Shown: positions 2,831-53,589, numbered from the stretch's first letter. The stretch: 64,000 bases of DNA from Psammoneis japonica (GCA_008632985.1 QPGO01000077.1:186001-250000); one strand, 5' to 3'. Notes: generated by a model not told the origin, from the sequence alone. Numbers and translations are program-made.

Positions 2831-2863
2831 ATTCATGCTTTGCTTGGTCTTTTCATGCTTTGC

Positions 2864-3560
2864 TCATGCAGCGCTGCACTTTGCCAACTCTTGACAAACA
2901 ATCAGTTCCACCAACATGGGCAGCTGATTGAGGGGTGACGGTGGCATTGCATCCTTGAACATCTCTCTGTCAACACACTGTTGCATTTGACGGAACATGC
3001 ACATCATCGCAAGAATGTGCAAACACATTGCTCGTCTGTCACAGCATCCGCAGCATGAAAATGGATGCTGCAACAGTTCCTTTGAGTCTCCATCAAACCC
3101 AACACAAAGAGAGTGTCCTTCTTGCATTTTCTTTGTCTCAGCTGACTCCTCATTGGATGATGCGATGTCTGTTTTCATTGACGGAATGCTTGCAGCTTGA
3201 AAGCCATGCCAACGACCCATCAACCAGTGTTTTGCACAATTGGAACTGTGTTGCATCAACAAGCAAGCTCCCTCATTGCAACAGCAACAGAGCACATTCA
3301 AGATTGTGTTTGTTGCCCTTTGGATAAAATTGTTGAATAAAATCCATGTCAGTTGGCATCAGTCAAGAAACCAGTGCAAAGCACTCATCATGATCCCACC
3401 TGTCAGTGTTGCTTGCAGGTTCCAACACTTCGTGAACCAGCCAATGCCCAATCTGCATTGGAGCCTCATCAGGGGGGAGCAAGCTTCTGCCGCATGCCAC
3501 AAGATCTGTGACTGTTGCTTCCAACTTCTGCCCATCCATCAGAGCATGCATTGTGGTGAT
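2864..3560 (-). pseudogene. SWIM zinc-finger accessory gene, convergent with the transposase (ISL2EU-type ORF2 C-terminus)
   Basis: 'SIPSMK...HSLCVGFD...FSCCGCCDRRAMCLHILA' matches the CxC-xn-CxH SWIM pattern preceded by a PSM motif; an upstream frame reads 'DFIQQFYPKGNKHN'; frameshifted. Confidence 0.6.
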
Positions 3561-4008
3561 TCATCCTGACCACCTTTCTCACAGGCAATTTTTAATGCCA
3601 TCACAGCACCAAATGTTGAGGTTTCAAACCTTGACAGTTGTGCACATGGTGACATTTTATTGAATGTCACAGTTCACAATTTTTCACTGTTGGAACCCAC
3701 CATTCCCTGTGGGATCCAACCCTCAACTGTGTGTGTTCTAATCATTCCACCTTCAGAATGCCGTCCCTTTTTACCTTTTCACTGCGATGTTCAAAACTTC
3801 TTTTAAATGACAAATTGCTGCTGATCACTGCATTTCATGGGTTTAAGGAAAGCTCCATTGCAAACACTGGTTGTCAAATGACAGTTTAGATCATGCAACA
3901 ATGACCACCAAAACACTTCATTGCCACGTCACAACTGTTTGCAATGAACACTAATGCATTGCTTGTCCGCTTTCCATTCTCACACTAACAAAAGGCTCCA
4001 CTGCTTTT

Positions 4009-5290
4009 TCACACCGCAGCTCGCCCATCATCTGAATCTACATTCTTTTTGCTTCCCTCATCACTTTCTTCATCCTCTTCTTCGCTGTCCTTGTCGCCTC
4101 TGTTCTTGTCCGTTACCTCTTCCTCCTTCTCCTCATTGTCACTTGAAAGCTTTAACGTTGCCTGTGTTCTTGCCTCCTTCCCCACTGGTTTTTTCTTTCT
4201 TTTTGCTCCCTTGCTTCTTTCGTCACTCTTCCTTTTCTTGCCTTTGCTGTGCCATGTGTTGAACTGCATGCCTTCCTCACTTGACCTGTCTTCCTTCACT
4301 TCTGCAAGCAGTTTGTTGAATTGCAACATCCCTTCATCCTTCCACGAGTCTTGCCACCTTGACGGGTCCGTGCACTTGGGTGTTGGTTCTGACTCTTCCT
4401 CATCCTCTTTGTCTGAGTCCCCCCCCCCCCCCCCCGCTCCAACAGTCTTTTCATGATGGGCCTTGTGCTCCAAACTCTTCCAGTGGTTGTCCAATGTCAA
4501 CAGCCCCAGAGCCTTGTTGCTTGCCGCAGTCAGACCGGGTGCCTTCATCTCAACGGACTCCACCTTCTTTCTCCATGTTGTGGTGCTCTTTGTGAATTTT
4601 AGGATGTTTTTGTAGAACCAAGCATCACAATTGTTGTCACTGTCTCCTCCTCCCAAGTTGCCAGGAGTGGTTCTTCATCCGCCGTCTGATCATTCTTCTT
4701 CCTCTTCTTCTTCTTCATTCCCCTTCCTCTTGCTGCTGGTTTCTTCTGACCATGTGTCTCCTCGGCTTTGTTCTCTGTCAACACAACTTCAGCAAATGAG
4801 GGCACAGCAGTGTCAAGCACGACCACACTCAACATGCAGTGCACCACAAAACACTTGCCAGCCATTGCATTGTTCTTGATCACCTGTGTGACGGTGCTCC
4901 TTTTTGTGTCAATTGCATGCATGACGCACTTCTTTGCCCAGTCTTCCCATGCTCCTGCCCAGTCTCACTTGCTGCAATTGCCACCGGCTGTCTTTTTCCT
5001 GATGAGCCGTGACACTTTGCCACTGCTTGCCATGTCCATCTTGACAAGGAACTTTGCCTTCGGGAACAGTTCCTTCCGTGCCACCTCTTCCACCTCTCTC
5101 TTCACAGACTGGTGATCCCCAGCAGCTCCCACCCACACCAATGCCGCTGTTGGCCTTGGGCTGGTTGGTTGATCTCCAGCCACCCCCACACTTTGTTTCT
5201 TCTTCTTCCTTGCCATTGCCTGTGCCTGTGCCGCTGTTGCAAATTGTCTGGTGGCTCTGTGCCTTGGGGCCCCAGTTTGTTTCACCATTG
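4009..5290 (-). pseudogene. Transposon accessory protein of the diatom 'SDEA..LL.LEN.W...KYT...GW..EG..RFN' type (Plavaka-associated), decayed
   Basis: 'LFPKAKF', 'SNKALGLLTLDNHW', 'PKCT', 'SWKDEGMLQFNKLLAEVKEDR', basic/acidic tail; probable intron at ~4788-4858. Confidence 0.55.
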
Positions 5291-5668
5291 CAAAAATTTC
5301 AAACCTCTCTTTTAACACTAAAAACCTGATGCTTTTCACCAATGATTCTCTTTTCTCAAAAGCAACATAAACAAGAATTAACCAAAACTTTTAGCGCATG
5401 CACAATTTGTCAATTTTGCCATTCCTCACCATCTTTTGAAAATTTCGAATCCATGCAAATTCCAGTTCAAACCTCTTTGTTGCTGCAATGTCAAAATCCA
5501 CTTCCACACTGTTCAACAACATGCACAAGTGTCTTGCTTAAAAAATCATTTTTAAGAGGTGCACCCACAAAAGTTGTTTTTGCTGCAATGAACAAACAAC
5601 ACACATGCTTTGATGACATTCTGGTTTCTCGCTTGTGCTGCAGTGCATCCATCCTTTTTGGTGCCAAA

Positions 5669-6877
5669 TCATTTTTTCCAGTCCACTTCGACATCTCCCT
5701 CCAACCTTGCAACTCTAAACCTGCTGTGACGCCCAACGTCAGAACAATCAGTCATGTGGATGAAAGCCGTTGTCTCTGCTTGGACACATCTCACGAAACT
5801 GTCTGCTTGAACATGCCACAGTCTCTCCACCCAATGCCTTTCCTCTCTCCTGGTTTGAAAATTCTGCCGCTCACAAATGACACCTGCATTCTCCTTTGCA
5901 ATTAAATCCCGCATCCATTCATTGACTGTCCTTGGAGACAATGGAAAGAACTCCATTTCCTCACAGAACCAAAGTCTTTCATGGCAGTCCTGCAAGATGT
6001 CATGCTGGAACCACTTCGCCAGTTTCAATGCATTGCAAACGATGACCTTGTTGTCCATCATGCCTCCCCAGGGTGATGTTTCTCCCAACAGTCCGCAAGT
6101 GCCCATCTTGTCCATTCCATAAGTTGGCAAGCTGATGCTCGACTTCTGTCTTAATGCCAAAATGTCTCTTGTGTCCATGACCAGTTTTGCATCGTCAAAC
6201 AAGGACCCCGCTGCAAATTCATCCCTCAGATCACTCTCTCCTTTGTTGTGGCAATGACTGTTGACACACCACATCCTTCCTTGCCTGTCTTGGTGCGTCG
6301 CGATGCAGCTCCAATGCTCCTTGCACTTGTGAGCATTGACCCCACGATTCATGACACTGTTCACCCAGTGCGGGTCATTGTGCATGGAGAACATGCGTGT
6401 GCTGGCATGCATGCACTCAATTGCTTTGTCACTCCATCCCTTCAAATGGTTGTGCACCCAAACCATGTGGTTGCATCTCTTCTTCCATTGTTCCTCCCAT
6501 GTTGACCGGCAATCATCATCATCCAAATGCCAATCTACACTGGAGAACACACGAAACAGGTCCATGCAGTCACGGTGGAGGTGAGGGTCAACTGCATGTT
6601 CAGCGCTCGCGCACTCAAACCAACTTCTACCAGTGTCATCAGAATTCACCGTCCCACCTGAGTCTGTTGATTTTGTCAATTGCTCCACTTCGTCAAAAGC
6701 CGCATCACACTCCGCTTGTGGCATGAGTTGTTTTCTCATGTTGTTTGTCATGTTTGTCAACGCATCAAATTTCTGCCAGCAGTCGTTTGGCCAACGGGCC
6801 ATCAATCTGTCATTTTGTACAACGACATTCATTGTTGACAATGATGTGTTCATCTTCTGCTGCAGGTGTGGGTGCAC
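5669..6877 (-). CDS. Transposon-associated 402-aa protein, possibly a Ulp1-like (C48) cysteine peptidase, hypermutated
   Basis: Long intact ORF with a single Tyr; 'HWSCIATHQDRQGRMWCVNS' (HW...YxD/NS-like) and 'MGTCGLL' (catalytic Cys-like). Confidence 0.35.
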   Translation of the reverse strand: MHPHLQQKMNTSLSTMNVVVQNDRLMARWPNDCWQKFDALTNMTNNMRKQLMPQAECDAAFDEVEQLTKSTDSGGTVNSDDTGRSWFECASAEHAVDPHLHRDCMDLFRVFSSVDWHLDDDDCRSTWEEQWKKRCNHMVWVHNHLKGWSDKAIECMHASTRMFSMHNDPHWVNSVMNRGVNAHKCKEHWSCIATHQDRQGRMWCVNSHCHNKGESDLRDEFAAGSLFDDAKLVMDTRDILALRQKSSISLPTYGMDKMGTCGLLGETSPWGGMMDNKVIVCNALKLAKWFQHDILQDCHERLWFCEEMEFFPLSPRTVNEWMRDLIAKENAGVICERQNFQTRREERHWVERLWHVQADSFVRCVQAETTAFIHMTDCSDVGRHSRFRVARLEGDVEVDWKK

Positions 6878-7343
6878 CCCTGCTGTGCTTTTTGCAGTGC
6901 AGCATCACGGTGAGGTGTGTCCACATTGCTTGTGACTGTCACATCACAACTTGCTTTCTCCTTTCCACAGAACAAAAACCTTTGCAATCTGTTGTTCATG
7001 CTCAAAGCAATCAATGATCCCAATGCATTTGATTCATTCCCACCTGTTGATGTTTTCATTGACAGGAAGAACGCAATGCACCCATGTTTTCACGCCAATT
7101 CGTGTCGTGTTTTCCTTGCTTTCTGCCACAATCATTTCACTTTTCACGATCTGAACCAGTGAGGCCCTTTGTCCACACATGTGTTTGTGGAGCCCACAAA
7201 CATCCCAATGTGTCCAAATGGAAGGAAACGCTGGTTGGCAGGTTGAGGATGGTGCGGTTGCATGTCCATGTTGCAAATGATCCTCCACGCGGACACTCAC
7301 CCATTTCCATCACAACCTGCAATGTTTTGCATTTGCTCGAGAG

Positions 7344-8008
7344 ATGTCAAACTTGTCGCATCGAGAGACAGTCGCAACCTGCCCATTGCCGGAGTTGTCC
7401 ATCAGCGTTGCAGCTCACACTTCTCCCGGCAGCAATGACATCTCTCGCAGACAGCGGTCAGCAGATCTTGACCTTTCTTCCTCATCAGATGACTTGTCAC
7501 CACCCCAGCTGAGGAGGTCCAGATGTGGTGCGTCTGTTGTGAACATCTGGCTTGGGCCAACTGCTGATGAACATGACCAAACCGATGCACTGTGGTCACC
7601 ACCATTTGATGATGACATTTCCCCTCTTGGGTCATGATGCAATCACGAGGAGAGCCATCACATGTCTGTGGACATGTTTTTGGAAGAAAGTGAGTCAGAC
7701 AGAAGCCAACTCGTTTGACGCGTTGCCAGATGTCACAATGGACGCCTCCGAAGTCACAAATCATGACGAATCAAACACCTCTGATGAAGACGAGGAATTG
7801 CTGAGTGATGACAGCCAATTGGGAAAGGTGCACCAGAGCCCAGCCAAAGATGCATTTGCCTGCTTGCCCTCTCTTGGCAACATCAACGGTGCTTGCGCAG
7901 AGCTTTGTAAGCTCACAGATGACTGCAGAGCACCGCTTCACCTGTGCGACAAGATCGCAAAGTTCATTGAAAGACACTGTGGCAGTGCATTCCAGATTGG
8001 CACACTGC
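7344..8008 (+). pseudogene. N-terminal fragment of a Plavaka-like transposase, truncated at ~8009
   Basis: Acidic N-terminal region, then 'CAELCKLTDDCRAPLHLCDKIAKFIERHC', which is the APLYLYD.I motif with Y->H/C changes; divergent from the accessory ORFs. Confidence 0.55.
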
Positions 8009-8100
8009 CAGAGGACTCAACCGGTCCCGGCATCCGTGACTGAAATTTCACCATGGTGAAGTGCGAGAGTCAAATCATTCGATTGGACTCAACCGGTCCC
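8009..8100. repeat. Putative element terminus: CAG start, 16-bp direct repeat GGACTCAACCGGTCCC (8013, 8085), palindrome TTCACCATGGTGAA (~8047)
   Basis: Seen directly; coincides with the truncation point of the Plavaka-like ORF. Confidence 0.5.
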
Positions 8101-8779
8101 GATTTTGCATCAAAAAGGCATGTTTTACTTTGATGCATCTCGCCATGGCATGCATCATTGGGTTGATGCATCTTTCATGGGGGATCTTTTTCTGCCATTG
8201 TTGTGAAGAGGTTGATGCATTGGTTTGGTTTTCTGGGGGGCTTTGGTTTTGACACATGGTGCAAACGGCAACATGCCTCGACTTGTGACTTGATTGCTGC
8301 AGGGTGCGTGCAACATGTGAATGGTCGACAATGTTGCGACGGTGAGTTCTCTTTGTGTTTTGTCAATTCATGTCATTTTCCCATTCACCAAAGATCATTG
8401 TTGTTTTTTGTTACAGCGTGTGAGGTCGATTGATCGTCTCGTACGGTCGATTGTTGCATCTGTGATGTTGGTGTCTTTCTCATGGCGTTTGCACCACCAC
8501 AGTGCATCCGTTTGGGAGCCTCATGCTTCGTCTCACTCTTTGTCCTTTGGCGCATCTATTTGTGCCATTTGTTTGGACTCGTGACAAGCTTGACATGTTT
8601 TTGGAGGTCTTGGTCGGCTCACAATCACAGCATGTCGTTTTTCGGTGACAACAATTTCATCGTGGAACCCCACAAATGTGCGGGGACCCGCAACCAGGAA
8701 ATGTGTGGAGTTGCACGTGCATGCATGGGGACCATTTACGTGGGTTTCATTGACCACTCAGTGGTTGGTGATTGCAGAC

Positions 8780-9465
8780 TTTTTCGTGTCGGTCCGGCAG
8801 TCGGGCAGTCGGGCAGTGGGGGGGTCGGGCAGTCGGGCAGTCGGGCAGTCGGGGGGTCGGGCAGTCGGGCAGTCGGGCAGTCGGGCAGTCGGGTTGTCCG
8901 TCTGAATTTGAAAGTGTGTCCCTTGGATTTTGAAAGGGCATGGGTTGTTCAGTGCAGATGAATTCTTCGGATTCTTGGAATTGTCATTGAGGACATGAGA
9001 GGTTGTGGGGACATCCTAAAAAATCGATAAATTCCCTACGACGGGTGCGTGGCACGGTTTTTCAGGAGAGCTCGAAAGTTCTGAAAAATTGGGATTGCCG
9101 GCGTGGCATGTTCAAAAATGTGTTCAGTTGTGTGCAAAGACAATTTATCGTGAATTCTACATGAAAAAGTCACATTGGGGAAAACACATCAAACAATGAG
9201 TGAGTTTGTGCGATGTGCCATTGTGGCGATAAATTGGAAAAAAAAGAGTGTCCGTGCACCTCGCTGCAGCCCCAAAAATGGCATGAGACATCAAATGTGA
9301 CGGTCATCCGCGTCACCGGTGCGGTGGCCACACCACTCAGCCACCACAATGCCTTCCCCGGCAGTGGGGCCCTGCGCACGTACAGGCAATGCAGCATGCA
9401 ACGGCACACACACACCCACACCCACAAAGAAAGACAAGTGGTCAATGCTCCCCACAGGCCTGGTT
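8780..9465. mobile_element. Dispersed repeat copy 1 (probable DNA-transposon terminus ending ...CAGGCCTGGTT)
   Basis: Colinear homology with 17755-18368; homology ends at the same motif in both copies. Confidence 0.85.
8795..8893 (+). repeat. 8-bp minisatellite (GTCGGGCA)n
   Basis: About 12 tandem units with some GGGGGG variants. Confidence 0.95.
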
Positions 9466-10241
9466 GTTCCAGAGCTGTCTCGCGAACTGCCAGGCGTTTT
9501 TTCGAAATTTTGTCGTAGAAACTGTGCCAGTTTTGCATGTGTGGGCTACGTTTTTCAGCGCCAAATACAAAAATGCACGTGGACCTCTACAGGAGGGTCC
9601 CCGCGCATTTGCGGGGTTCCTCGATGAAATTTCTTGACAGTGCATGCCGTGGGAACAAAACGATGCGATGGAGTCTCGGGGACACTCACGACGTTGGCAT
9701 TTGTCAGACAGCCTTGCCACAGTCCAAAGAAGGCAACACTGTGAGTGTGTTGTGAATGATTGAGTTTTGCACTCGTTTTGACGAAACTTGCACACCCAAC
9801 GAGCCTTTTTTGGTGCGCCTCGATCATGCGTGCAGGCATCTGGTCCTTTTTGACCCTTTCCACCTGCCCTTCAACCACATTGTCATCATTGTCTAAGACG
9901 CTGTATTGTCCACATTATTTTGGGAGATCTTTGTGGTGCAACTGCAACTCTGGGCTTTGCAATGGGTAAAATGTGAAGGTTGAGGCTTGTGTTGGCGGGC
10001 TCATTGCCTCCTCTTGAATGCGCTGATGCCACGAACCGCTGATGGCACTTGGGGGCATAAAAACTGGCAAGGCAACTCAGCTCTACCTTGAAAAGGTGCC
10101 CTGGTGAGTGTGCTGTGACATGTGACCACAATGGATTGTCATTGTGTGCGTTGTAAAACTCACATTTTCATTTTGCCTGTCATTTTCCAGCATGACTGTC
10201 TTGACCGTTAAAGCTTGCAGTGGCATTTCCAGGCCCATGTT

Positions 10242-13200
10242 CTACATGATCGATGTCTTTTGACAACACAGCAGTTGTTCGTTTGGGGAGTCAGGTGTGA
10301 ATCTTTCAGCATCTAGTTGGGTCCAGAGAGGTGTGCGTGATGGATGAAATGTGGACCAGGTTGTGGATGGAATTTGGCGCATGTGCCATTTTTCTCTACG
10401 GCAGAGTTGGCAAGTGCATGGGTGTGTGAGTCTGGATGGACTCTCTCTTGAGGGATGCTGCTCTAAAGTGCTTTGCTCTAGAGCAGAACTTGGTGCAAAA
10501 GGTGAGAGATCCATCATTTGTGATTTTCCACTCGTCGCGGCATTTTTGGCATTGTCCATTGACGACGGAAAGTTGGGTGATCCATTTGCAGGTGTGATTG
10601 TGTGGCTCTCAGCATTCTAGTTGTCTTTGAGGGTAGGATTGCACCACATGTCCTCCAGGAAGCATTGTCATTTGCTGCACAGCAGATGTTGCTTGAGGGT
10701 TCATGCATTGTCGCGGCACGGTGATGCTGTCGCTCTTGCTTCTGCGCACAGTCACACTGGAATTCATGCGATCATCTGTCAGTCAGCCAGCAGGACCGGC
10801 TCAGGCAGTGGGACTGGTTGAGTCAGCCAGCAGCAGGAGCAAACTCATGGAGAACCTTCACAAATCATTTCCTGGTCCCGAACGCGAGATGATTCCAGTT
10901 GACCTTGACAGCGTCACTGGGGAATGGGGTGAAATTTAGGGTCGTCGTCAACACCCTCCAAAATTTCACACTCGGTTAACCCACATGGCTTGCGGAGATG
11001 CTGGCCAGAGGGAGAGAAGGCAAACAGGTCTTGTCATGAACATGGTCCATGGAACACACAATCAAAAATGCAGGTGCAGCGATTGTTGGAATTCTCACAC
11101 AGTTTGTGCTCAGTTCCGTTCCAACTGTGCTCTTTGGTTCCTGTCTCTGATGATGTCCTTTGGTGCATGAGCGGCCTTTCTTCCAGTTTGACATGTCCCA
11201 GTTGTGCGGCAGCTCCGGAATTGAAGACAGGATGCACAATGTTGTTCAGTCTTGGATGGTCCTTCACTGCAACACCAGCTAGCACCAGACATTGCAGCAC
11301 CAACATGAGACAAATCTCACTAAAATCTGCTCCCCGGTCTGCCCAAGCATCACACGCCACCTTGCACCATTGTCCCATTAAATTGGGACAGAACTCATGG
11401 GTGTCGATGTTGTCGTTCACCCAGAGAAGTGCAGCATGGATTTTGTCCACCATTTTGTCAACTGGGTCATTTGCCGTGGCGACGTGCCTCTGGTCTAGAA
11501 ACACCTCCAAAAACTTCTCGTACGTCAAATTGGCAGGGCTGATCCTTCCAACCTGTGGGTCGCCGAACAACACGCCAAATGCATTCATCAAGCAATCAGC
11601 AAAATTCACAAACGGGTCCATGCCTTTGCAACAAAGGTTGGGCAGATGCTTGTCCCCCACATGGTAAAATCGGTGATGTCCAGTTGGATGACCCGCATGG
11701 ATCACCAACCGGATGACTCGTTTTGGGTCTGGCCCCAATCGGCACACAATGTTTTTGAAACTGCAGAGCACTGTGACTGGAGCAGACAAGTGAAAGTCCC
11801 TGACTGGGAATGTCGGGAACTTGAGCCAATCCATGTGCACCTTGGCGTGTGAAGATTCGCCGCCTCTGCCTGTCACAACATTGTCCCATGGCCTGTTGTC
11901 GTCAAGGGAAAGATGCTTGAATGCACTGCTGGAAAGCGACACGTTGGGGTGGGAGGGACCATTGTGTTGCAAGTCCAAGTCTTTAAGTGCAAAGTCAAGC
12001 TGAGCTTGACATGTCACACTGGTTGTCATGGCATTCACCAATGGTGGCTCTGCTGTTGGCAACAACCTTGAAGGACCATGTGTCGCCAAAGGCATCCACA
12101 ATAAAAAAACAACCTGTGGCTGTTTTCCTGTGTTGATGCCAGGTGCAGTTTTTGACGTCACAGTGACAATCACAGACTTGACCCCAGGAAATGCACAATC
12201 CCTGCATGGCAACGTCCTTGCGTTTAAAGAAAAGACAACCCATTTTGTTGCACAACTCTTTCGAATGCTCCTCGCACCAAAGCAACCAGTTGAATGGTGG
12301 CGGATTGCTCAGTTTCCTCAGCTCTACCTCGTTTTTGCAAGGCCAAATCAAGTCGAGAATGTCTGCTGCCATGGTCTTGATTTTGGAGGACTCGTTTGCG
12401 TCGAAGTCATCATCAGACTCAAAAACATGAAGTCTGCAGGTAGCCTTGGGCTTGGCAAGTTTGGCAGAGCCGGGCAACTTTGGATGATGCACTTGCCCTG
12501 CACAACCAAACTTTGTCCTGCATCCTTTGCCATTTTGAACTGCAACCGGTCCATCATGACTCAAATTGGACTCACCCTTCAACAAAACAAATGGCAGAAG
12601 GGCAGGAATGCACACACAAAGGCACCCAAAGTGCCCTTTTTGCAGAGAGTTAGCTTGTCAGGCAATGGAGAGTTCCTCGGAGAAGTGATCAAGGTGAGGA
12701 GGGTGCTTGGTTTGGACACGAGATGCGGCGACGGAATCACACAAAGAAGTTTTGTTTGAGAAAGTGTGTCAGTTTTCCTGCAAGTTGTCTGCCAGGCAAA
12801 AGTTGGCGGCAGAATGATGAAGCACACGATCAGTGTTGGTGGCTTTGCCAATGATGTGCAGGTGTGACAAATGAGAAACAACTTCCTTGGAGGTGGTGGG
12901 CCGACACTTGGATGGATCAAAGTGATTGCGGAGTGTGGACTTGTCCAGCCACGACATGTCATTGGGGTTGATGGGAGGAGATGCATCCACAGGAGGATTT
13001 GCCAAAACAGATGGAGGAGAGGAGTGCCGTTTCGAGGGAGCACCTTTGGAGGCAGGAGAAGGTTTTTGGTTTTCCATGATTTCTGAGAGTGACAGAAGGT
13101 CGGCAGTGAGAGTCTGGTGCACCTCCCCAGACAATGCAACATCACCAGACAACAAAGGAGGTGCTGGTTTTGGGTGAGATGCAGGCTTGGCCTTCTTGTT

Positions 13201-14679
13201 GGGGACAGTCAAGGAAGGCTCTGGTGGGGCATGTGCAATCACAGGGTGTGAGGAGGTGCCGTGAGACAACAGATGCAGGCAGAAGGTTGAAGGCAGGAGG
13301 TGGGGGGGGGGGGGGGGGGGTGCTCACCATCGCACAAACAGGTGCCATCTTTGCAGATCCTCTTAATTTTGCATTTGGTTTTAGATTTGTGCTCTCGTTT
13401 GTTGTCATCTTCCAAGCAGTTGGCCCTCTGATCACGCATTCTGCAACAAAGCATTGTGAGCCGCTTGCTGCACCTGGGTTGGATGCCAGTTTGCTCCTTG
13501 GGACAACGCTTCCCAAATTCATGATTCAACATGGAATTGATTTTTTCTTTGTGTGCCTCCTGGCATGCAAGGGAATTGCCTTGCATTGTCGCTGTGTTCT
13601 CAATGTCACCGATTTGGTCACCAAGGAACCCCTTGATCTCATCTGCCTGGGAACCAGGATCATTGGTGTCGCACACAACCAGCAAGCTGTTGACAAACAG
13701 GTGCCATTTCTTTTGGGTGTTGACATGACAAAAAATCTTCAGGAACCAACAATTTGTGTCCTTTGGTTTGTGCTGAACGTAACGCATGACAATGTCAGTG
13801 ACAAAGCATGCACCATGGAGGTCTTGGGCTCGTTCGTTGATCAAATTTTGGAGACTTTTGCAACTTAAAAATTGGAAACAAGGCTGACCAGATGCGGGAT
13901 CATTTGGGTCGTTGCTGGTGATGATCACATGGACAAATTCTGCCATTGCCCAGATGTTGCGGTGGAGAAGCATGTGGTTCTGCTGTTCTTTTTCTGTCTC
14001 TCTGGACATTTTGGAGAAATGGAGAGCCTCCTTGAGATTTTTGTGTCGAAGGACACACTCACCTTTCAGCGCGCAAGATTTCTCAATGGACCAACCTTGA
14101 GTCATGATGCAGGACCAAATGTTGGGACAGCCAAGAGTTTTCCTTACAATGTCATTGGTGCGGATAATTTCAGCAACATGTGAAACACAACGTAACTTTG
14201 GCTTGTGACAAAGGAAGGGAAGAGCAAGGAATTCTGGAGAGGGGGTCCAATTTGTCATCTCCAAAAACTGCTTTTTGGATGCACGCGTTGCGATTGTGCT
14301 TTTGAGCTTGGGTCCAAACAATTTGAATCCAAAACCATTGGTGAAACATTCCATTTCATCAAAACTGCAGTCCTCTTGGCAAATTGGAAGGAAGGGTCAG
14401 GGTCGACCTTGTCGTCAGACGGGGTGAAGCAGTTGGCCACCATGGCCAACAGTCAGTTGCCGATTCACATAGAATGTGCAGGAATTGCAACAGTGCACAC
14501 TCTTGTCAAATGTGTTTTGGGGAGAGGATGTGCTGTTGTGAAACAGGTGGAGCATTGTGCATGCAGAAAATGCAACAAAATCCAGGTGGGGAGCTGTTGA
14601 CTGGAGTTCTGGTGGGTGCAGGTGAAAAACAATGAGCCAAGTGCTCATGTGGCCAACTTGGGCGTAGAAGAAATGCCAT
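10242..14679 (-). pseudogene. Large (~1,400-codon) decayed transposon-borne gene: N-terminal C2H2-like finger, Pro-rich linker, HxDxxN motif and a helical domain with an E-h-x-LCE motif
   Basis: Consecutive minus-strand ORFs 13239-14354, 12769-13269, 11995-12615 and 11034-12212 join through frameshifts; motifs 'CIFC...HILSPKH', 'CHCDVKN', 'SGAAAQL...TEHKLCE...DCVFHG..QDLF'. Confidence 0.55.
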
Positions 14680-14918
14680 CCTCTGTGGTGGTGCAAGAGT
14701 GTGTTGGAGCCATTGAAAAGAACTGTCAAAGTTAACGTTCAATAAATTTGTCAAAACAAAACTTATTTTTCGCAAATGAAACACATGTTGAAAGTCATTG
14801 GCAAATTTAAATCAAAACAAAACGGTGACAATTACACACATAAAAAGGCAACAACAATTTCAACATGACTCTCATCTTTGCAAGTGAAGTTTAAACATGA
14901 CAACATGCTTGCACACCA

Positions 14919-16242
14919 TCAAATGTTCCGAACAAGACAAAGGAAAGTGAGCACCACTGTGTTGCAGCCTCTGATGTCCACTGCAATGGGGCACCCCATC
15001 CGAGCTGATGTCCAACACTGCAGCACATCCGTTGGCATGCATTCCACCGGAACTGCATCAAAGTTTAATTGTGCATGCATGGGAAGCTCTTTTCCTTCTG
15101 CTTTGGCATTCTCAAGAGCACTGCACGTGGGTGTTGGAAACATCTCAGTGGTGCACCATTCAGAAATGTTGGGCCTTTGAATCAACACGCTCATTTGTAG
15201 TCTGCAGCGGACACAGGAAGCAACTGAAACGGATCGAACCCTGTCAGGTCAGTCCAACCCTGACAACCTGTGTCTGAATTAAGAGGAGTCAATGGGACTA
15301 AATTTCCATGCTCATTGAGTGCAGGGCAATGATTGAACAGTGCAATGGCATGGTCAAAATTCTTCGTGCAATTGTCAGGGATCAACATGGTTCTGAATTC
15401 ACCCACAACAGCCTCTGCAACGCAAGCACCAGAAAAATCATCATCAAGCCTCGGCAGAATCCTCTTGAATGTTTTTTTGAAACCAATGTTGTGCACCAAA
15501 CTACAGCAATCAGACCCAAGAAGATTTGCCATCGCTGCCCAATGTTCAAAATCAAAAGCAGTGATGGGACAATGTTTTGGAGGCAGAAAGTCCTTCTGAT
15601 TGTAGACCTTCCATGTGTCATTCTTTGTGCCAGTCTTGAAAGGAACCATTTTGGCACCCAGTGTGATTGTGTCTCTGTCTTCTGTCATTGCTGCATCAAT
15701 CCGGCCTTCTGCTTCCATCTTAAGTGGCTGGTGCTCTCGGCCTTGAATGGTGCACAGTCAAAAAGGATTCCCTCAGGCTCCATCCACTCTTTTGTCAAAT
15801 GAGATGTCATGTCAGGATTGGGACTACAAAGATCTCTTGTGCATTTCAGAGACTCTCCACAGTCAGACTTGCAAATGGGAGACCCAGCCTTTCCTTTTGC
15901 AACATGCTCCTCCAACCACTTCTTTGCTTTGTTTGTCTTTTTGTCTCAGGTCTCTCTTGCAACGCTCTTCATGGGATGCCGAAATCCATCAAAGACAGAG
16001 AATGGAGTGATGCTGGCAGAGACAAGCTTCCAGTGGCTTGACTGCAGTGATGCCAATGAACTCTTCAGTGGATGCGCAGGATTGGCCATCAATCACCGTG
16101 TGGTGGCATCAGTGTGGCAAGCCTCATGGAGCCACACTGATGCATCAATCCCAACCGTCTGCCCTTCTGTGTGTCAAAAAGGCATTGATTTGCTTTTGTT
16201 GACAGCGCCAAGCACCTCAATCCAAAGCTCCCTGATTCCCAT
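14919..16242 (-). pseudogene. EXO1-like XPG/FEN1-family 5' nuclease, decayed, inside the repeat domain
   Basis: 'MGIRELW...GQTVGIDASVWLH...ITPFSVFDGFRHPMK' (XPG-N); 'CAPFKAE...GRIDAAMTEDRD' (XPG-I); 'LLGSDCC..HNIGFKK' (H3TH, with DY->DC); in-frame TGA stops consistent with CGA->TGA. Confidence 0.85.
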
Positions 16243-16819
16243 GGTCAACACAGCCACTGCAAGAATGACAGTGCTGCTGATGATGTGGGCAAGAAATTCT
16301 GAAATCTCAGAAACTCCCCCAAAATCTTCTCGAGTGTGACGCGTGCATCTGGCACATGCCACCACTGCTTGTGAAGGATGAATCCTCATGTGGCGGCATC
16401 TTTTTTTACACAGCTTGTGATTTTTCAACTTTCTTGCATTTTGCAATGCCTCTGAGCACCCCTGAGCACTTGTGAGTGTGCCCAACTCCCATCAGGGCCG
16501 ACAGACATGCACTTAAGCTGCACTTGTCAGTGGTTGTTGTGCTCAACAAACTGCTCTTTTCACCAAAGTCATGCTGCTTGTGGCTTGTGGCAAAGAACAA
16601 GCCACAACTTTGCAGAAATGCTGGCAATTGAGGGTGCACAGCTGGCTGCTGCAAACATGCCCATGACTGCCAACCAGGGTGCCCCGGACCCCTGCACAAA
16701 GCACAACTGGGGCACTCAACAATGTTGCCTCTTGTTGGGAGCACCAAATCAAGCCAAATGTTGCTTCTGAAGCTGATCTTGCTGTCAAGCAAAAAGCCAC
16801 TGAAGACATGCTCTCCAGC

Positions 16820-17180
16820 TCCAGGCAGGGCTCTGTGCAGCGCTGGGCTCACAGAGCTCTGCGCACAAGCTTTTCAGTGTGAGAGCTTGGCCAGTGGATG
16901 TGTTTGTCTTTTACACAACACAAATGACCAAGTTTGTGCTGCAGCTGTGCCACTTGACACTTGGCCTTTTTGAGGGCTTGTCCCCACCCTGTGCCACTTT
17001 TGAGACATTTGAGAGTGGCACTGTGAAAACACGTCGACAGTTGTTGAATGGACAGCTTGACAAATGTGCCAAAAAATGACACAAAATTGTGCCCAAAGCC
17101 ATGCAGAGGCGTGCATGTGTGACATGCAGTGGACAAAAAACTTTGACATTGCAGCCCAGCATTGCAAGGTCCTCTCCAGC
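16820..17180. repeat. Diverged dispersed non-coding repeat, second copy at ~19920-20280
   Basis: Shared blocks GACATTTGAGA.TGGCACTG, AAAATGACACAAAATTG and TGCAAGGTCC; starts with a GCTCTGTG/CACAGAGC hairpin. Confidence 0.7.
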
Positions 17181-17754
17181 CTTGTGCTGGAGTGCATCGG
17201 AAAAAGTCAAATGGGGGCAAGTCCAGATTGTGTGACAGTTCCAAGCCAAGAAATGTGTGATTGAATACAAGAACAACAATGGAGTGACAATTGCACATGA
17301 GTCAGAGAGAGAAAATGCCGGGACAAAAAAATTTGTCCCGCAGGTGTGAAAAAAGTTAAACAGATGGCCAAATTCTGGCACATTGACAGGGGTCGTCAGC
17401 CAGAACTGGCACAAAAGAGATGCAGAGCTGTGCATCAAGTGCTTGCATGTCAAAGGGGAGCCAGCCCACAGCAATGACCATCATCTGTTGAGGAGTTTGT
17501 GGCACAGCAAAAATTGATCCACGCCATGTAAAAAGTGCAACACAGCAGCCATGGGTGGAGACACCACAGAAATCACACAGAAACAAATTTTCTTGGATCA
17601 AAACAAGAGTTGCCTTGTTCGACAGAGGGTGCTCAGAGGTGCTTGGAATGGGGCACAACTTCTTCATTGGCCTTGCATTTGTCAAGATCAAGAGCAAAGA
17701 AATGACCGCCATTTTCCTGCACTTTGCCGTGCAATCACAACTGAAAATGTTTGA

Positions 17755-18368
17755 TTTTTTCGTGCGTTGGGGGGTCAGGCGGGGGTCCGCCCATCCAAAT
17801 TTGAGAGTGTGTCCCTTGGATTTTAGAATGGCATGCGTTGTTTAGTGCAAACAAATTGTTCAGATTCAGAGAATGATCATTGAGGACATTGGAGGTTGCG
17901 GGGACATCCTTAAAAAATTGACAAATTCTCTGCGACAGGTGCCCGGAACTGTGTTTTCTAGAAGAGCTCAAAAGTGCTGTAAAATTGGGATTGCCGGCAT
18001 GGCATGTTGAAAAATGTGTTGAGCTTTGCACAAAGAGAATTTGTTGTGAATTGCACATGAAACAATCATGTTGGAAAAAAACATCGAACTGACAACAAGT
18101 GAGTTTGTGCAATGCGCCATTTTGGCAACAAATTGGGGAAAAAAGAAAGAGTGTCCATGCACCTCACTGCAGCCCCAAAAATGGCATGAGCCATCAAATG
18201 TGATGGTCATCTATGAGAACAGTGTGGTGGCCATGCCACTCTGCTGCTGCAGTGCTGGCCCCGGCGGCAGGGCCCTGCACATGTGTGCAGGCAATGCAGT
18301 GTGTGCAACAGCACACACCCACACCCGCAAAGAAAGACAAGTGGTCAATGCTCCCTGCAGGCCTGGTT
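17755..18368. mobile_element. Dispersed repeat copy 2 (homologue of 8780-9465)
   Basis: Direct alignment; this copy has lost more TA and CG sites than copy 1. Confidence 0.85.
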
Positions 18369-19049
18369 TTCATGCATTGACTCATTTGCAGTTTTGGAAT
18401 GTTGTTGCAGCTTGCATGATGCCAATGGTGACTGGCATCAAAAGCAGAAGTTCTCACATCTCCAATGATGCATCTGCCAAGTCACCTGACTGCTCAGTTG
18501 GAGAGAATGAGAAACACAGTGCTTTTCTCACTTTTGCCACACTTCACCATGTAAAAATCAACTGAGCACAATGATCCATGCCATTTTCATGGCAAAATTG
18601 GGGTCACATTGTCAAGCACAATGAATCCACCTTTGTGCCATTCCCACTTTGTGTAAATTCTCTGTCATCCCTTGAGCAATGCCAGCAGTCCAACTCATCC
18701 GTCATTGTTGTCAAGGTCCAACTCGGCAAATTGACATCACTTTTGTCAAAGGTGACATTTCTGGCAAATGGCTTTTTTGCCAAAAGAGAAATTGAACCTG
18801 TGCAGTTTGTTGGTCCAAGAGCACACATGACAAAACGGGGCTTGGTGGGGTCCTTGGCCGTTGCCTTGTCACAAGCCTCACGAGCTGGCTTTGCACCACA
18901 CAGCAATTCAGTTCATGCACATGGCATCCACACTGGCGGCAGCAGTGGATGATGATGATGACTGTGATGCATCCAAGGTAGAAGCAGTTTTTCTGCCACC
19001 ACCATCTCTTCCACCACTGCTCCCTTGCAGTTGTTGTTTGAGTCATTGC

Positions 19050-19290
19050 AAAATGCTCTTTTGCCAACAGTTGCTGTTTGGGATTTAAATGCAACATGTG
19101 TCAACAGGCAGTTTGGGTTGAAGGTGATTCATTCTTGTGCAGATTGGATTGAAGTGAAGTCATCAAGGTGCACTGTTGATGATGTTCCATCAAATCTCCC
19201 AATTCTGTGACATGCTCACCATTCAAAAAGAGTTCCATCATGCAACAACCAACACCAAAAATGTTGCTGGCAGGTGTCCTGTTGTTGACG
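19050..19290 (-). pseudogene. Fragment of a VPS15/PIK3R4-like protein kinase C-lobe
   Basis: 'TPASNIFGVGCCMMELFLNGEHVTELGDLMEHH...LHKNES..QTAC*HMLHLNPKQQLLAKEH' resembles Vps15 subdomains IX-XI. Confidence 0.6.
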
Positions 19291-21479
19291 TCTTTGTCAT
19301 GAATCATGGCAGCTGTTGCTGACAACCTGTTTGTTGTTCTTTGTTCTTGAAGGGTGGATCATCATTTGTTGGGAGTTTTTTTCAGAAAATGCATCAACAA
19401 GATGGTGCTGCAACAACAAGATGTTCACAAGATGGCATCTCTGATTGGGCCAACACGCCAGCATCAGTGGGTGCAAAAAATCTCCCACAAGCAAAAAATT
19501 GAAACTTAAAGATTGATCAAATGAGTCCCAGATGGATCAGCATGTTTGTTGTTGTCTGCCACACAAAATGCCCACAATGTCAGCCTCCACTGTGCATGCC
19601 CGCAATTGCAAATTTCGTGTTGCACTTTTTTGCCTGGCACCTGCCATCTGCTGTTCTTGCAATGCCGCAGCAGTGAAGTCACCTCAGTGACAACAAAGAA
19701 AAGCTCCACTTTGACAATTTCTTAATGCCTTCCCCCATTTGCCCCTCCCAGCAGAAACAAAGTGAGGGTGGTCCATTGGTCGGAATGGGCCATGTTGTGG
19801 CCCTTCCAGACCTGATGAAAAGCAAAGCTCAAATGAAGATGGTGTTTTCCAATTCAAGAAAAAATCTTCAACAAAAATGAGTGGCTTCCCTCTGACTTAA
19901 GGACAGTTGTTGACATGTGCTCCAGCCCAGGTGGGGCTCCATGTGTGATGTTGGGCTGTGCTGGAGTTCTGCATGTGAGCTGCACAGTGCAAGAGTTAAG
20001 TTGACAGGTGCACTGAAAAAAGCCAAGTTTGCAGTGCAATTGTGCCTCTTGACAATCAACATCTTTGGAGATTTGCCTGCCCTGCACCATTCTCAAGACA
20101 TTTGAGAATGGCACTGCAACAAAAAACAAAATGTCAAAAGTTGTTGAGTGGATGACCCAACAATTGCACCACAAAATGACACAAAATTGCACCAAAATCA
20201 TGCAGAAATGTGCTTGCACAACATGCAAGAAATGAAAAAACTTCAATGTCACAGTCTGGTGCTGCAAGGTCCCACCCAGAGCTGGAACACATCTGCTGAT
20301 GAGCGCCGGCCAAAGAAGGTCTCAGGAGATGTTGGCAAGAATGGAGTGGCAAACAAGAAACAGCTTGCAAAGAAACAAAAAAGTCCATGGCTGAGCTCAA
20401 AACAATGATGATGTTTGTCAACATTTTTTCAATTAAGTTCTGCAGCAAATCAATTTGTCACATGCTGGGAGTTCCTTGTCACCATTGATGCAGGCTTCTC
20501 ACTCAAGTGCAGTCATGCAAAGAGATCCTCAAAAGAGTGCAAGTCTGCCATTTCACTGGAAAAACAACAAGAGCCCAAAAGTGTCAAGCACAATTGCAGT
20601 TTTAAGACAAATTGTTTGCTGGCTGGACCCAGCTTTGAAGAGGCAGAAAGTTGAGAGGAGGCATTGGTTGCCAGCTTGAGTCACATCATTTGAGTTGACA
20701 CACAGTGACAACTGCACTTCCAGTGTCAAAGAGCTTTCAGTGGCAAAAAGAAGATGGGTGCAACATTCTGCAGCATTGAGCCAAAAGAGCTTGGAGTTGC
20801 AGCTGAAGTCATTGCTGACCCAAACTCTTCTCACTTGCAACTCCACACACTTCTGCATGACTGCATCCCCCAGACAGATGCTCAATCATGTCTGATGACT
20901 CCCAAAATGCAAGGGAGCATGCAGCCAAAGCACACCCAAAGGGGAAGCAGCACCTTGACAACAACCAATCTGCAGGAAAGCTGGTGAATTTCAAACCTCT
21001 TTATGAAGATGAAGAAATTCAGCTTCCCAACACAGACTTGTGCTGCAAACAATGAAATGAACTCATGGAATCTGCCATGGACAATTCACACAGGATGCAG
21101 CAAGAAGGCTGTGGACTTCCTCCAAACCCTGAAGAGATGGAGTCCAGGCTTTGACTGCAGGATGAAATGCAACTCTGAAACTTGATGCCAGACAGTTCTT
21201 TGGGTTTCTCAAACAGTGCAACAAGAGCATGGATCCATTGTGGCATCACTGTTTTTCTCAGCACCATGAAGACAAAACTGAACAGAGTCTCCCCAGGAAA
21301 CACATTGGTCCAGCATCTCATGTTTCAGACCCATTAAAGCAGGAGTTGTGGGCAGCATTGCAGAGCAAGGAAGGTGTGGAAAGTGTTGCAAAGTGAGGAA
21401 GGTGCCACATGGAAATCACTGGTGCAAAGCAAGAGGTGGAAAATGTTGCAAAGCAAAGAAGATTTTGTTTGAAGCTGCG

Positions 21480-22442
21480 CCAACACACTGGCTCAGGTGT
21501 GCAGCTGCTGCTCATCAGCTGTTGGAACATGTTTCCAAGTGCAACCAGTGAACTCCCGCCATCATCAACTTGATGGACTGGCAATCTCACACAGTGCTCA
21601 TTAAATGACATTCCAAGAAACACATTGGCATGGTCAAACTTGTCCATGACCTTCTCCCAACAAACAAGATTGCTCATTGGTGTGATCCCATCTACCCACA
21701 TCATTGTCTGACTTGTGAACATCCCATGGACAAGGACGGAGATCACATGCTCTGGTGCCCAAACAACAAAGCTTGGTGCAGAAAATTTTTGCAAGGGCTT
21801 CACAAATGTTGCGATCACATTGATGCCATTCCTCCACTTCAAGATTTCCTGATGGCCTCTTTAGAAGCTTGGTTCAATGAAGAAATGACACACACACCAA
21901 CAAGGTGGGCTGTTGCTGCAGAACTCTGTGGGATGCTCAGTTGGACACAGGATGGTGGCAGGTTTTTAACGGATGCTGCTCTTGCCTCAGGAATGTCTTG
22001 CAATCTGGCCACTTGCGCGATTCAGGTGTCCTCCATCAGCACCAAGAGGAACACAAACAACCCCCAAATTGGACAGTTCAAACAGGATCTTGCACATGGA
22101 AGCAGTGGCAGGAACTCTGGGAAGAGCACAACCAGTTAGTTTGTGGTTGTGATGTTGAATCTAGGAAATCTTCCCAATGGCACCAAGCAGAGGCACCAAG
22201 CTGACAGCAACACACAACAAATGTCAGGAGCATTTGATGAAAGATCAAGGAGTGTCGTTGGACACACCAGCAGAACACAAGATGTTTTCTCTGCTGCCAG
22301 AGCCCAGAATTGGATCTCAATGGTCCACCCCAGATTGAAAGAAAGTTTGAAGGAAGCAAAGCACCAAGCACTTTGTGGCACACTCACCATTGCCAGTCAT
22401 GTCCGTTGGGCATCTCCTGCTGGAGGTGCCACAACCGGCTGA
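21480..22442 (+). mobile_element. Non-LTR retrotransposon (diatom Ambal/L1-like) ORF2 3' fragment
   Basis: 'MDWQSH...KLVHDLLPT...CLTC...DGDHMLWCP' (CCHC finger), 'QLDTGWWQVFNG', 'WKQWQELWEEHN..VCG.D'. Confidence 0.75.
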
Positions 22443-23419
22443 TTGCACAAACTTCTGCCACACCCCTTGCAGGGCGCATTGGAAGTGTGGGTTAGCTGGC
22501 ACCGGTGTTGCTGGGCAAAGGTGCAACGGCACTTTAAAATCAGGTTTGGTTTTTTTTTTTGGAATGCACACATTTGCCAAAATGAAATTCCAGTGGTGGG
22601 CCAAACTTTGTTCACTCCTCGTGAGAGATCACAGAGTGCACAGAAGATGGTTTTGACCATGCTTGATGTTTGGCTTGTTGACTGCAGTCCTGGAAAAAAT
22701 GTGGTGTGGCCACCTTCAAGTGGCCCCATTTTGACAACAAGTGATGCTTTTTTGAAGCTTCCAAGTGTGGCATGTGCAAAAGAAGTGCCAGATCTTTCAC
22801 AACACAACACACCAAAACAACCATGGAAATGCTGCGATTGCTTTTGTTGTTTGCAGTTTGCTGCACCCTTGTGAGGCCCACCTCTGCAGCAGAAGGGTGA
22901 GCAACTCAAAGAGATGCTGTTGAACACACAGCAGATCAACTTGAGCCACTTGTGGGCACAATGAGTCTTGCGGCAATGCTCCAGCATGGTTCAAGCAAAG
23001 AAGTTTGAGGCGGCGAATGTCAGCTCAGATGTTGGCACCACAAGCCCTGCCTTTTTCATGAAAATTGCCTTGTGAGGATGCTTCACAAGAGTGGAGAAAC
23101 CTGTCAAAAAGATCAGCTGATGGTTGGAAAGAAGGGTGGCACTTTTGGTCATGACACTGTGACACTTTGCACAAAAGAGTGTGGAAAACAATCCAGAGTG
23201 ATGGTGCCAAGCATGCATTCAACAGCCAGCCTTTCCTGTCCCAGGAGTGGACAAATGACATCGCAATGGTTGGGCCAACAAGCACAGTGCCAATGTCACA
23301 CAATTGCCACATTTTGTTTTTGCTGCATGTTTGTCTTGCAGAAAAGAGCATCATTAAAAAGAAGGAGCCTCGAGATTGAGGCATGATTGTCACAACATGA
23401 TCCGAAAGTGGCGAGGAGC

Positions 23420-23545
23420 TGGGGAAGCAGATTCTTTTGTCAAAATGAAGAGCATCACTGGCACTGAGGAGGGTGTTTGTGTTGCAATGTTGGAAGACAA
23501 TGGGTGGGAGTTGAAAAGATCCATTGAAACATTTTTTCAATCGGG
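23420..23545 (+). pseudogene. UBA-like domain fragment at the edge of the hypermutated domain
   Basis: 'MKSITGTEEGVCVAMLEDNGWELKRSIETFF' fits the UBA_4 pattern; the upstream part could not be reconstructed. Confidence 0.5.
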
Positions 23546-24063
23546 CCAATGGCAATGGCGCAGAAGGAGGGAGAATGAAGAGAACTGTTTTGTTTTGTTG
23601 GCTGACGCGCCTTTGTTGTGCAAGATGTTGGATTCTAAGCTCTTTACTTCTATCATAATTTATAAGCTTAAGAAAACCAGTTTTTGATCTTTGCTTTACA
23701 TTTTACCTTTTTCGGTTGTCTACAACGTGACTTGCAACACACTTGAGCCAGACGAGAGAGCACGAACTTTTGTCATGAGGTGCTCATGAGCTTTGCGGAT
23801 TTTGGGCGCTTGCGCTGTAGCTCTGTCGGTTCGTGGTCGGTTATGTTCGTGGGCCGGCCGCGGCCGCAATGGCGTCGAAGCGAAGGCGTTTCAGCGTCAC
23901 AGTATATCGAAACGAAACGGAGTGCCTCCCGTCAAGCTGATTATTGTACCTCGCTTAAAATTAGCTTGCTTCAGTTGAAGTACTGTTACGCCTGAGAGCA
24001 TACGTAGAAAGCCAACAGAGCTGCAAAGATACCTGACGATTCGACAACAACAAAAAATTGAAC

Positions 24064-28629: not shown

Positions 28630-28789
28630 GAGATGCATTTTAAAATTCTACCAAATCCATAAAATCATTTGACTTTGGAACTGGCTCTCAGAAATGTGGG
28701 ATAGAAGCAAGCCGATGCGCAAAGAATGCTTCGTTTCCTCCAACATTTTGGCAAGTCATTGAGAATTGGTCATAGGAGATTTCAAGTGA

Positions 28790-53464: not shown

Positions 53465-53589
53465 GGAGTGGCGTACTTTCCAAAAGTGCGGTGCGCAGCA
53501 CTCGTCTACATACGGACAAACAGCACTAGACTCTACGCACCAAACACAACAAGATTTCACTTCATTACGACAACAGCACGGGAAGTCTA

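Follow-up and report, generated by a model that had tools for sequence, protein, structure and literature searches.

The closest described counterpart of the DNA analysed here is found in the chlorarachniophyte Bigelowiella natans. In mutation-accumulation lines of this alga, two silent integrated viral regions mutate at ~1000 times the genome rate, and A>G and T>C changes, every one of them at TpA, make up 230 of the 231 mutations in these regions; an ADAT2-like adenine deaminase has been proposed as the cause (10.64898/2026.01.13.699255). Within the portion of that preprint drawn on here, silent inserts are further described as leaving clusters of windows poor in TpA and rich in CpA+TpG. Diatoms methylate transposable elements (TEs) via DNMT5a, and some have a RID-like DNMT4 of unknown function, as given in the part of the source cited (PMC9998398). 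A full-text literature search returned no report of TpA-directed hypermutation in diatoms. Here, we describe a 64,000-nucleotide stretch of the Psammoneis japonica assembly (GCA_008632985.1 QPGO01000077.1:186001-250000; the window, with positions counted from its first letter), in which gene-poor blocks are depleted of TA and CG, together with two copies of a ~570-bp dispersed repeat (copy 1 and copy 2) and a single-copy nuclease pseudogene. With a probability of about three in four, TpA hypermutation together with decay of methylated CpG in silent DNA explains both the depleted blocks and the differences between the two repeat copies.

The window resembles the B. natans regions in that the changes read as A>G and T>C at TpA, affect the two strands alike and produce TpG or CpA, and in that they are confined to delimited regions of the nuclear genome where single-copy DNA is hit as well as repeats. 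Expressed in our own observed/expected (o/e) measure, all 23 of the 1-kb bins of 1-23000 pass the B. natans cut-offs of 0.43 and 1.52 (TA at most 0.24, TG/CA at least 1.55), and bins 29001-30000 and 42001-45000 do so likewise. The two cases differ in several respects. The process is known here from its footprint alone, whereas in B. natans the mutations were measured, and the host is diatom-like rather than a chlorarachniophyte. The depletion is much deeper, with a TA o/e of 0.09 as compared with 0.45 in the B. natans region ascribed to nucleocytoplasmic large DNA viruses (NCLDV), and what is hit, in place of viral inserts, is a pseudogene of a nuclease along with short repeats that do not code for protein; searches for viral or TE domains gave none. 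Finally, a CpG arm runs alongside the TpA arm in the window, whereas the text of the preprint, to the extent used here, has 0 occurrences of ‘CpG’.

The CpG arm is itself similar to the decay seen in methylated TEs, so far as the portion of the literature cited above describes it: CG>TG/CA is dominant (16/22 sites in the repeat pair), and CG o/e is low in repeats and ~1.0 in genes. The 11 CA/TG double differences between the copies are likewise as expected from CG ancestors. CpG decay alone, however, accounts for one of the two arms and predicts a rise of TA, not a fall. Fungal repeat-induced point mutation (RIP) prefers CpA>TpA and thereby raises TpA/ApT. As in RIP, the changes in the window are transition-only, ruin repeated or silent DNA, spare genes and yield a two-compartment genome; unlike RIP, which makes TpA from CpA, they leave TpA/ApT at 0.09/0.84, and unlike RIP, which acts on duplicated sequence, they extend to a single-copy pseudogene. 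RIP is thus ruled out by the TpA shortage and by the depletion of the single-copy stretch 14989-16312. A>G changes at adenines that follow T/U are also a trait of A-to-I hyper-editing by ADAR, with its 5′ U preference (10.64898/2026.01.13.699255, in the portion used), but the substrate of ADAR is RNA, and one strand would then be favoured, whereas TG and CA are near equal here (106/111 in the pseudogene, 3/3 at the TA sites of copy 1).

Composition of the window

Averaged over the whole window, TA o/e is 0.34 and CG o/e is 0.69, values that mix two very unlike compartments. Borders were taken from a two-state hidden Markov model (HMM) on pyrimidine-purine (YR) steps, with a cross-view in 1-kb bins. 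Bins 1-23000, 29001-30000 and 42001-45000 exhibit TA o/e of 0.01-0.24, CG of 0.04-0.80 and TG/CA of 1.55-1.98, with just 2 TA and 2 CG in bin 20001-21000, whereas the gene-bearing bins have TA o/e mostly at 0.45-0.70 and CG at 0.74-1.28. The HMM gene blocks, with sharp borders, range from 0.55 to 0.63 for TA and from 0.82 to 1.06 for CG. A previous description of this DNA (the sequence-only reading) had taken the direction of change from a ‘global’ depletion; the depletion is instead confined to sharply bounded gene-poor blocks (Table 1).

Pooled over five such blocks, the depleted DNA (27,000 bases, G+C 0.479) has a TA o/e of 0.09 (160 TA), a CG o/e of 0.35 and TG = CA = 1.73, and its YR o/e values sum to 3.90. 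Pooled gene DNA (27,801 bases, G+C 0.483) has a TA o/e of 0.54 (1010 TA), CG of 1.00 and TG/CA of 1.19, with a YR sum of 3.91. The 12 non-YR dinucleotides are alike in the two compartments, and AT (0.84), AA (1.26) and TT (1.26) are without depletion in the depleted DNA. Equal YR sums at equal G+C are as predicted by pure transition traffic from TA and CG into TG/CA. For the depleted DNA of the window, the statement of the sequence-only reading that TA as well as CG collapses onto TG/CA holds, whereas the repeat pair from which it was drawn gives by itself no direction for TA.

TA survival in the pooled depleted DNA varies with the flanking bases, with o/e values of 0.36 for TTAA, 0.12 for CTAC/GTAG, 0.02 for ATAG/CTAT, 0.01 for ATAC/GTAT and 0 for ATAT, a dependence that may represent a sequence preference of the process. 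Because TAA and TAG are almost absent, the depleted blocks also carry long false open reading frames (ORFs): 129 stop-to-stop ORFs of at least 90 aa occur in ~27 kb, long in all six frames. None of the 129 scored above cut-off in Pfam; XPG_I alone came near, and the other matches (E >0.003) were noise. The island that holds copy 1 with its satellite and inverted arms is CG-normal yet TA-poor (Table 1), which places TA loss and CG loss out of step. A second, 330-bp island lies within depleted DNA at 42891-43220 (CG o/e 1.23, TA 0.33).

Former nuclease gene

Depleted block 2 contains a pseudogene of the XPG nuclease type (Table 1), which scores 34.5 bits for XPG_N (cut-off 22) and 22.5 bits for XPG_I, slightly under the cut-off of 24.9. 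TGA codons interrupt its frame at three places, and the frame shifts once near 15700-15760. The contig depth of ~64 is that of a single copy, and the single-copy stretch 14989-16312 is as depleted as the repeats. Tyr makes up 0.5% of the pseudogene product as compared with 2.2-4.1% in seven homologues. At the columns where Tyr is the majority residue, the pseudogene keeps none of six, the codons now being CAT, TGC, TGC, TCT, GTT and TTT, and one Arg-majority column reads TGA. As the working gene needed its Tyr codons, the loss of TA in the pseudogene is derived. TG and CA are balanced between the strands of the pseudogene, at 106 and 111.

The pseudogene belongs to a rare family: a search of 1.84 billion representatives gave 24 proteins with E up to 0.001, the best of them at 38% identity. 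No relative was found in viral_contigs. A PDB search gave 0 matches for the N-terminal part and weak FEN1 matches (E 0.012) for the C-terminal part. Full-length homologues (~650 aa) end in a Cys-rich CCGCYDGR..CSH motif.

Repeat pair

A blastn search within the 64-kb window pairs copy 1 with copy 2 in an alignment of 576 columns at 80.2% identity (E 2e-142), and no third copy turns up. When the two are aligned with MAFFT, 451 columns match, 108 differ (by 74 transitions and 34 transversions) and 14 contain gaps, and the six motif pairs quoted in the sequence-only reading were all found in it exactly as given. By dinucleotide, the differences comprise 12 CA/CG, 9 CG/TG, 5 CA/TA and 4 TA/TG, and CA/TG accounts for 11 of the 13 adjacent double transitions. 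Only 1 of 12 TA sites is common to both copies (1/7 of those in copy 1, 1/6 of those in copy 2), and CG is kept at 3/21 copy 1 sites and 3/10 copy 2 sites, as compared with 45-90% for the remaining dinucleotides.

When C/T differences are sorted by the conserved 3′ base, with strands pooled, they amount to 21/104 before G, 9/88 before A, 3/91 before C and 6/117 before T. T before A is altered at 6/8 sites versus 4/120 for T before C or T (Fisher p 1e-6), and C before G is altered at 16/22 sites versus 5/88 at CC/CT (p 2e-10). AA>AG, read as TT>CT, shows no increase (4/83 and 2/34). All six altered TA sites of copy 1 are CA or TG in copy 2 (TA>CA 3, TA>TG 3). TA and CG instability between the copies far exceeds chance, and the two steps are equally unstable.

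With respect to direction, the pair speaks for CG. Sixteen sites are CG in copy 1 and TG or CA in copy 2, as opposed to five of the reverse kind (binomial p 0.027), which together with CG counts of 23 and 10 identifies copy 2 as the more decayed copy. The corresponding split for TA is 6 versus 3 (p 0.51), with TA counts of 7 and 6. In addition, C/T differences at CpA (3/80) are similar to those at CC/CT (5/88; p 0.72), and at this ordinary rate all nine sites with TA in one copy and TG or CA in the other could be ordinary TA gains on a TA-poor ancestor. What can be read from the pair is that TA either does not last in the repeat or is rare there; by itself the pair does not give the direction for TA. 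The proposal that the pair displays TA->TG/CA substitutions directly is therefore not borne out. An ancestral TG/CA state at these sites, which the sequence-only reading had set against its own claim, is compatible with the pair, whereas the pseudogene, the majority of the repeat family, the YR sums and simulation favour TA loss.

The two copies also differ in surroundings and abundance. Copy 2 sits within depleted block 2 and copy 1 within the ‘normal’ island. Contigs of one public run (X1; 2,910 contigs) were placed on the window at 80% likeness, which yields a summed depth that is not equal to copy number: ~11,000 over copy 1 and ~1,200-1,300 over copy 2, as compared with ~64 for single-copy DNA. 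The repetitive stretch extends over 8700-14988, with a summed depth of 1,000-4,700 beyond copy 1. Two other runs, X2 and X3, cover next to nothing of the window; X2, a second run of the same sample, matches only 9628-10263, at a high depth of up to ~3,900, with loose ends that lead into unrelated sequence, and this segment may be a repeat common to another replicon or organism in the sample.

The repeat is non-coding, with stops in every frame, and Pfam, Rfam and tRNA scans gave no match, so that there is no sign of a head of the short interspersed nuclear element (SINE) type. A conserved 21-mer of the repeat had 0 matches in a metagenome scan. The microsatellite joined to copy 1 (Table 1) has a degenerate remnant 5′ of copy 2, and the alignment of the copies runs into it. 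Around copy 1 lies a foldback-like frame, of which the inverted arms are 8653-8689/9595-9631 (37 nt, 92%), 8704-8722/9573-9591 and 8740-8758/9437-9455. That the copies are the two long terminal repeats (LTRs) of one retrotransposon is ruled out by the absence of any reverse transcriptase, RNase H or integrase match in 9466-17797, and the LTR reading also fails on their unequal age (CG 23 versus 10, summed depth ~11,000 versus ~1,200).

Polarisation and simulation

The majority letter of the repeat family was taken as ancestral at the 39 best-supported of 1,637 variable places, 2 of which lie within the two copies. At these places, TA>TG/CA occurs four times (9543, 9581, 10046 and 10068) and TG/CA>TA not once; there is in addition one TA>CG double change (9559/9560) and one minority case (9939). 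As TA is ~19 times rarer than TG/CA, the per-site asymmetry of the polarised TA changes is large. For CG, six changes to TG/CA are accompanied by four in the opposite direction. In the recent tandem duplication of block 1 (Table 1), the classifiable transitions are three CG>TG and one TA>CA, with none at other pyrimidine sites. Of two further repeat pairs, 16928-17128/20023-20227 has no TA in either copy, and in 43763-43877/44086-44201 none of the changes falls on TA or CG.

Simulations were started from the window's own gene DNA. CpG-only decay at 10 times the ordinary rate, run to a CG o/e of 0.35, leads to TA 0.62, TG/CA 1.45 and G+C 0.44, and a longer run takes TA to 0.80. With CpG raised 6-fold and TpA raised 20-fold, the simulated DNA attains CG 0.34, TA 0.11, TG/CA 1.76 and G+C 0.51, near the observed block. 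The TpA arm is strand-symmetric, both in the pair (TA>CA 3, TA>TG 3) and in the TG and CA counts of the pseudogene, which fits a process on double-stranded DNA and not on a transcript. The direction TA -> TG/CA is supported by the pseudogene, the family majority, the equal YR sums and the simulation.

Features of the window

Table 1. Coordinates of features in the window, with o/e values of dinucleotides where available
Feature	Position	Strand	Basis
Depleted block 1: TA o/e 0.07 (40 TA), CG 0.37, TG/CA 1.73	1-8409		HMM, 1-kb bins
Recent 557-bp tandem duplication in block 1, 98.4% identical, 9 mismatches	761-1873 (761-1317, 1317-1873)	+	
Normal island (copy 1 with satellite and inverted arms): CG o/e 0.88, TA 0.20	8412-9692		HMM
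Foldback-like frame (~980 bp) around copy 1	8653-9631		Inverted-repeat search
(GTCGGGCA)n microsatellite, period 8, 12.8 copies, joined 5′ of copy 1	8792-8893	+	TRF
Copy 1 of ~570-bp non-coding dispersed repeat; younger, CG-rich (CG 23, TA 7)	8905-9465	+	blastn, MAFFT
Depleted block 2: TA o/e 0.09 (86 TA), CG 0.28, TG/CA 1.76; contains copy 2 and pseudogene	9695-23603		HMM, 1-kb bins
Single-copy pseudogene, XPG_N/XPG_I nuclease: TA o/e 0.10, CG 0.26	15194-16242	-	Pfam, homologue alignment
Copy 2 of ~570-bp repeat; older, CG-poor (CG 10, TA 6, TG 73)	17798-18368	+	blastn, MAFFT
ATG5	24037-25071	n/a	
Depleted block 3, between two genes: TA o/e 0.06, CG 0.16, TG/CA 1.82	28741-30189		HMM
Depleted block 4: TA o/e 0.03, CG 0.23	41727-42889		HMM
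Depleted block 5: TA o/e 0.06, CG 0.24	43222-45689		HMM

The window is eukaryotic and intron-poor. In addition to ATG5, it codes for a short-chain dehydrogenase and contains the giant ORFs and the three Ion_trans genes described below. The closest named relatives of ATG5 are all from diatoms (Seminavis robusta, 53%; Fragilaria, Mayamaea, Cylindrotheca and Nitzschia), the top match overall being at 68%. The giant ORFs with PT repeats, DUF7507 and DUF11 occupy 30545-41474 (+) and include a tandem array at 32309-37931 that is built from ~50 units of 108 nt (36 aa), rich in Pro, Ser and Thr, with higher-order periods of 288, 396, 431 and 468; the product is probably a mucin-like surface protein. 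Used as a gene-compartment comparison (24 units), the variable columns of this array gave TA 2/6, CG 4/14 and TT 4/6, which are too few sites. The neighbouring single-domain Ion_trans genes lie at 50476-51786 (-), 52376-53647 (-) and 54753-55625 (+), and two of them are paralogues arranged as inverted arms with about 68-77% identity. The three genes may be akin to the voltage-gated channels with a single domain that occur in diatoms.

Discussion

The observations above establish that the window falls into two compartments, that TA and CG are unstable to excess and that the former gene has undergone a net TA loss. Accounting for them as TpA hypermutation together with methyl-CpG decay in silent DNA would proceed as follows. 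The two copies would be passengers, members of a non-coding dispersed repeat family in the gene-poor, repeat-rich DNA of a diatom-like genome, where two context-dependent transition processes would act side by side and push the self-complementary YR steps into TG/CA. One of these, CG>TG/CA, would be the ordinary decay of putatively methylated CpG in silenced repeats, and the other, TA>TG/CA, would turn A:T into G:C at TpA, whichever the strand, ~20 times as fast as transitions ordinarily occur. As genes would be spared, a mosaic genome with sharp borders would be the result. Between the copies, this would appear as a net loss of CG in the older copy, whereas TA would be near a low equilibrium in both, with fast turnover. 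By analogy with B. natans, we infer that the TpA arm is targeted and probably enzymatic, of the kind described there, with adenine deamination as the leading candidate.

Several points weigh against this account. The numbers are small, with 12 TA sites in the pair, 39 polarised places and 6 Tyr columns. The polarised places were, moreover, selected as the best supported, and 22 of the 39 fall in one element (9543-10156). The predicted single transition explains only 3 of the 6 lost Tyr codons. Ordinary C>T at CpA in an ancestor poor in TA is compatible with the TA differences of the pair, and copy 1 is CG-rich (0.88 in its island) while TA-poor (0.20), such that there is no simple coupling in time of the two losses. 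Pfam gave no TE or viral domain in the 129 ORFs of the depleted blocks, and ‘foreign DNA’ is accordingly no more than a candidate target. The process may also be rare or lineage-specific, given that 34 metagenome loci around ATG5 relatives, on contigs of a type biased against repeats, stay at or above 0.26 in every 1-kb segment for the YR index, defined as (TA+CG)/(all YR steps), as compared with 0.107 in the window here.

A variant that keeps the two-ended decay replaces adenine deamination in the TpA arm with thymine oxidation by a TET/JBP-type dioxygenase, or with error-prone resynthesis by DNA polymerase eta (Pol eta). T and 5-methylcytosine (5mC) are both 5-methylpyrimidines, here before a purine, and the oxidised thymines 5-hydroxymethyluracil and 5-formyluracil (5hmU/5fU) mispair with G; the TET/JBP-type dioxygenase would be one that also acts on 5mC. 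Pol eta, with its WA motif, would carry out the error-prone resynthesis in the repair of T:G mismatches in methylated DNA. The identical borders of TA and CG decay are in agreement with such a scheme. The WA motif of Pol eta would have AA>AG raised, which is not observed (4/83, 2/34), and a strict coupling of TA and CG is at odds with a copy 1 that is TA-poor while CG-rich. We consider this variant unlikely.

The conventional explanation is that of neutral divergence with CpG decay only, in which TA is not hypermutable, the ancestor was already TA-poor and TA alleles are new, having arisen via C>T at CpA or G>A at TpG. The pair itself is at ease with it: CpA changes are as frequent as those at CC/CT, the TA split shows no asymmetry (6 versus 3, p 0.51), and the copies contain 7 and 6 TA although CG stands at 23 and 10. 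Beyond the pair, it leaves the TA-poor ancestor without a reason, along with 27 kb at one sixth of the TA of gene DNA at equal G+C. It meets a former gene that has lost 6/6 conserved Tyr codons, polarised places with 4-5 TA losses and 0 gains, and a simulated CpG-only decay under which TA rises. These observations render it decidedly unlikely as compared with hypermutation at TpA.

Selection or biased fixation could in principle remove TA, through avoidance of TATA-like starts or of TA/TTAA transposon targets, or through GC-biased gene conversion. In its favour, TA>TG/CA is a weak-to-strong AT>GC change of the type favoured by gene conversion, and TTAA is the best-kept TA context (o/e 0.36). 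Against it, the CG>TG/CA change opposes the same bias, and AT, AA and TT are without depletion (0.84, 1.26 and 1.26). As selection would also have to operate, implausibly, on nearly every TA of decayed, non-coding and partly single-copy DNA, this explanation is very improbable.

On some platforms, base modifications can lead to miscalls of a systematic kind, A>G as well as C>T, and the footprint might accordingly be an artefact of modified TA and CG sites miscalled in the assembly. In depleted DNA, the X1 contigs, which are possibly the assembly's own data, differ from the window at 0 of 532 positions (10357-10888) and at 2 of 2,792 (14856-17647), and the stops and frameshift of the pseudogene, along with the divergent repeat copies, fit real decay, so that miscalling is scarcely credible. 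Lastly, the notion that the TA shortage is a by-product of CpG decay, a ‘mathematical artefact’ of o/e ratios in an idea credited to Duret and Galtier in the portion of the source used (PMC3829696), agrees with the coincidence of TA and CG depletion in every block but is refuted, and left with virtually no probability, by the absolute TA count, which goes from 1010 to 160 in equal DNA lengths at equal G+C, and by simulation, which gives a TA o/e of 0.62-0.80 instead of 0.09 and a drop in G+C to 0.43-0.44.

With TpA hypermutation and methyl-CpG decay as the preferred explanation, the window is probably a member of a very recently described kind, TpA-directed hypermutation, so far seen only in one unrelated alga. 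If so, a saturated footprint of this kind, which here covers every large gene-poor block of the 64-kb window, would imply a process that is older or more widespread than one species. A tentative extension, which we hold to be possible at best, is that diatoms, and perhaps the whole SAR supergroup (stramenopiles, alveolates and rhizarians), run a chromatin-targeted TpA hypermutation as genome defence, in which adenines of DNA are deaminated or thymines oxidised. On that view, the window would show for the first time, and in a saturated state, the footprint of the B. natans process in another lineage, one of ecological dominance.

Such a process would combine with methyl-CpG decay to clear silenced DNA of its two palindromic YR steps and leave blocks nearly without TA, and hence without TAA/TAG stops, TATA-like signals and Tyr codons. 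For annotation the depleted blocks of the window constitute a trap, in that gene callers meet false long ORFs there, and the repeats and pseudogenes in the blocks evade domain searches. A saturated footprint in a diatom-like genome would further mean that the process can be recognised from sequence alone by the YR index defined above, and that its influence on the composition of the genome equals in strength that of CpG decay in vertebrates.

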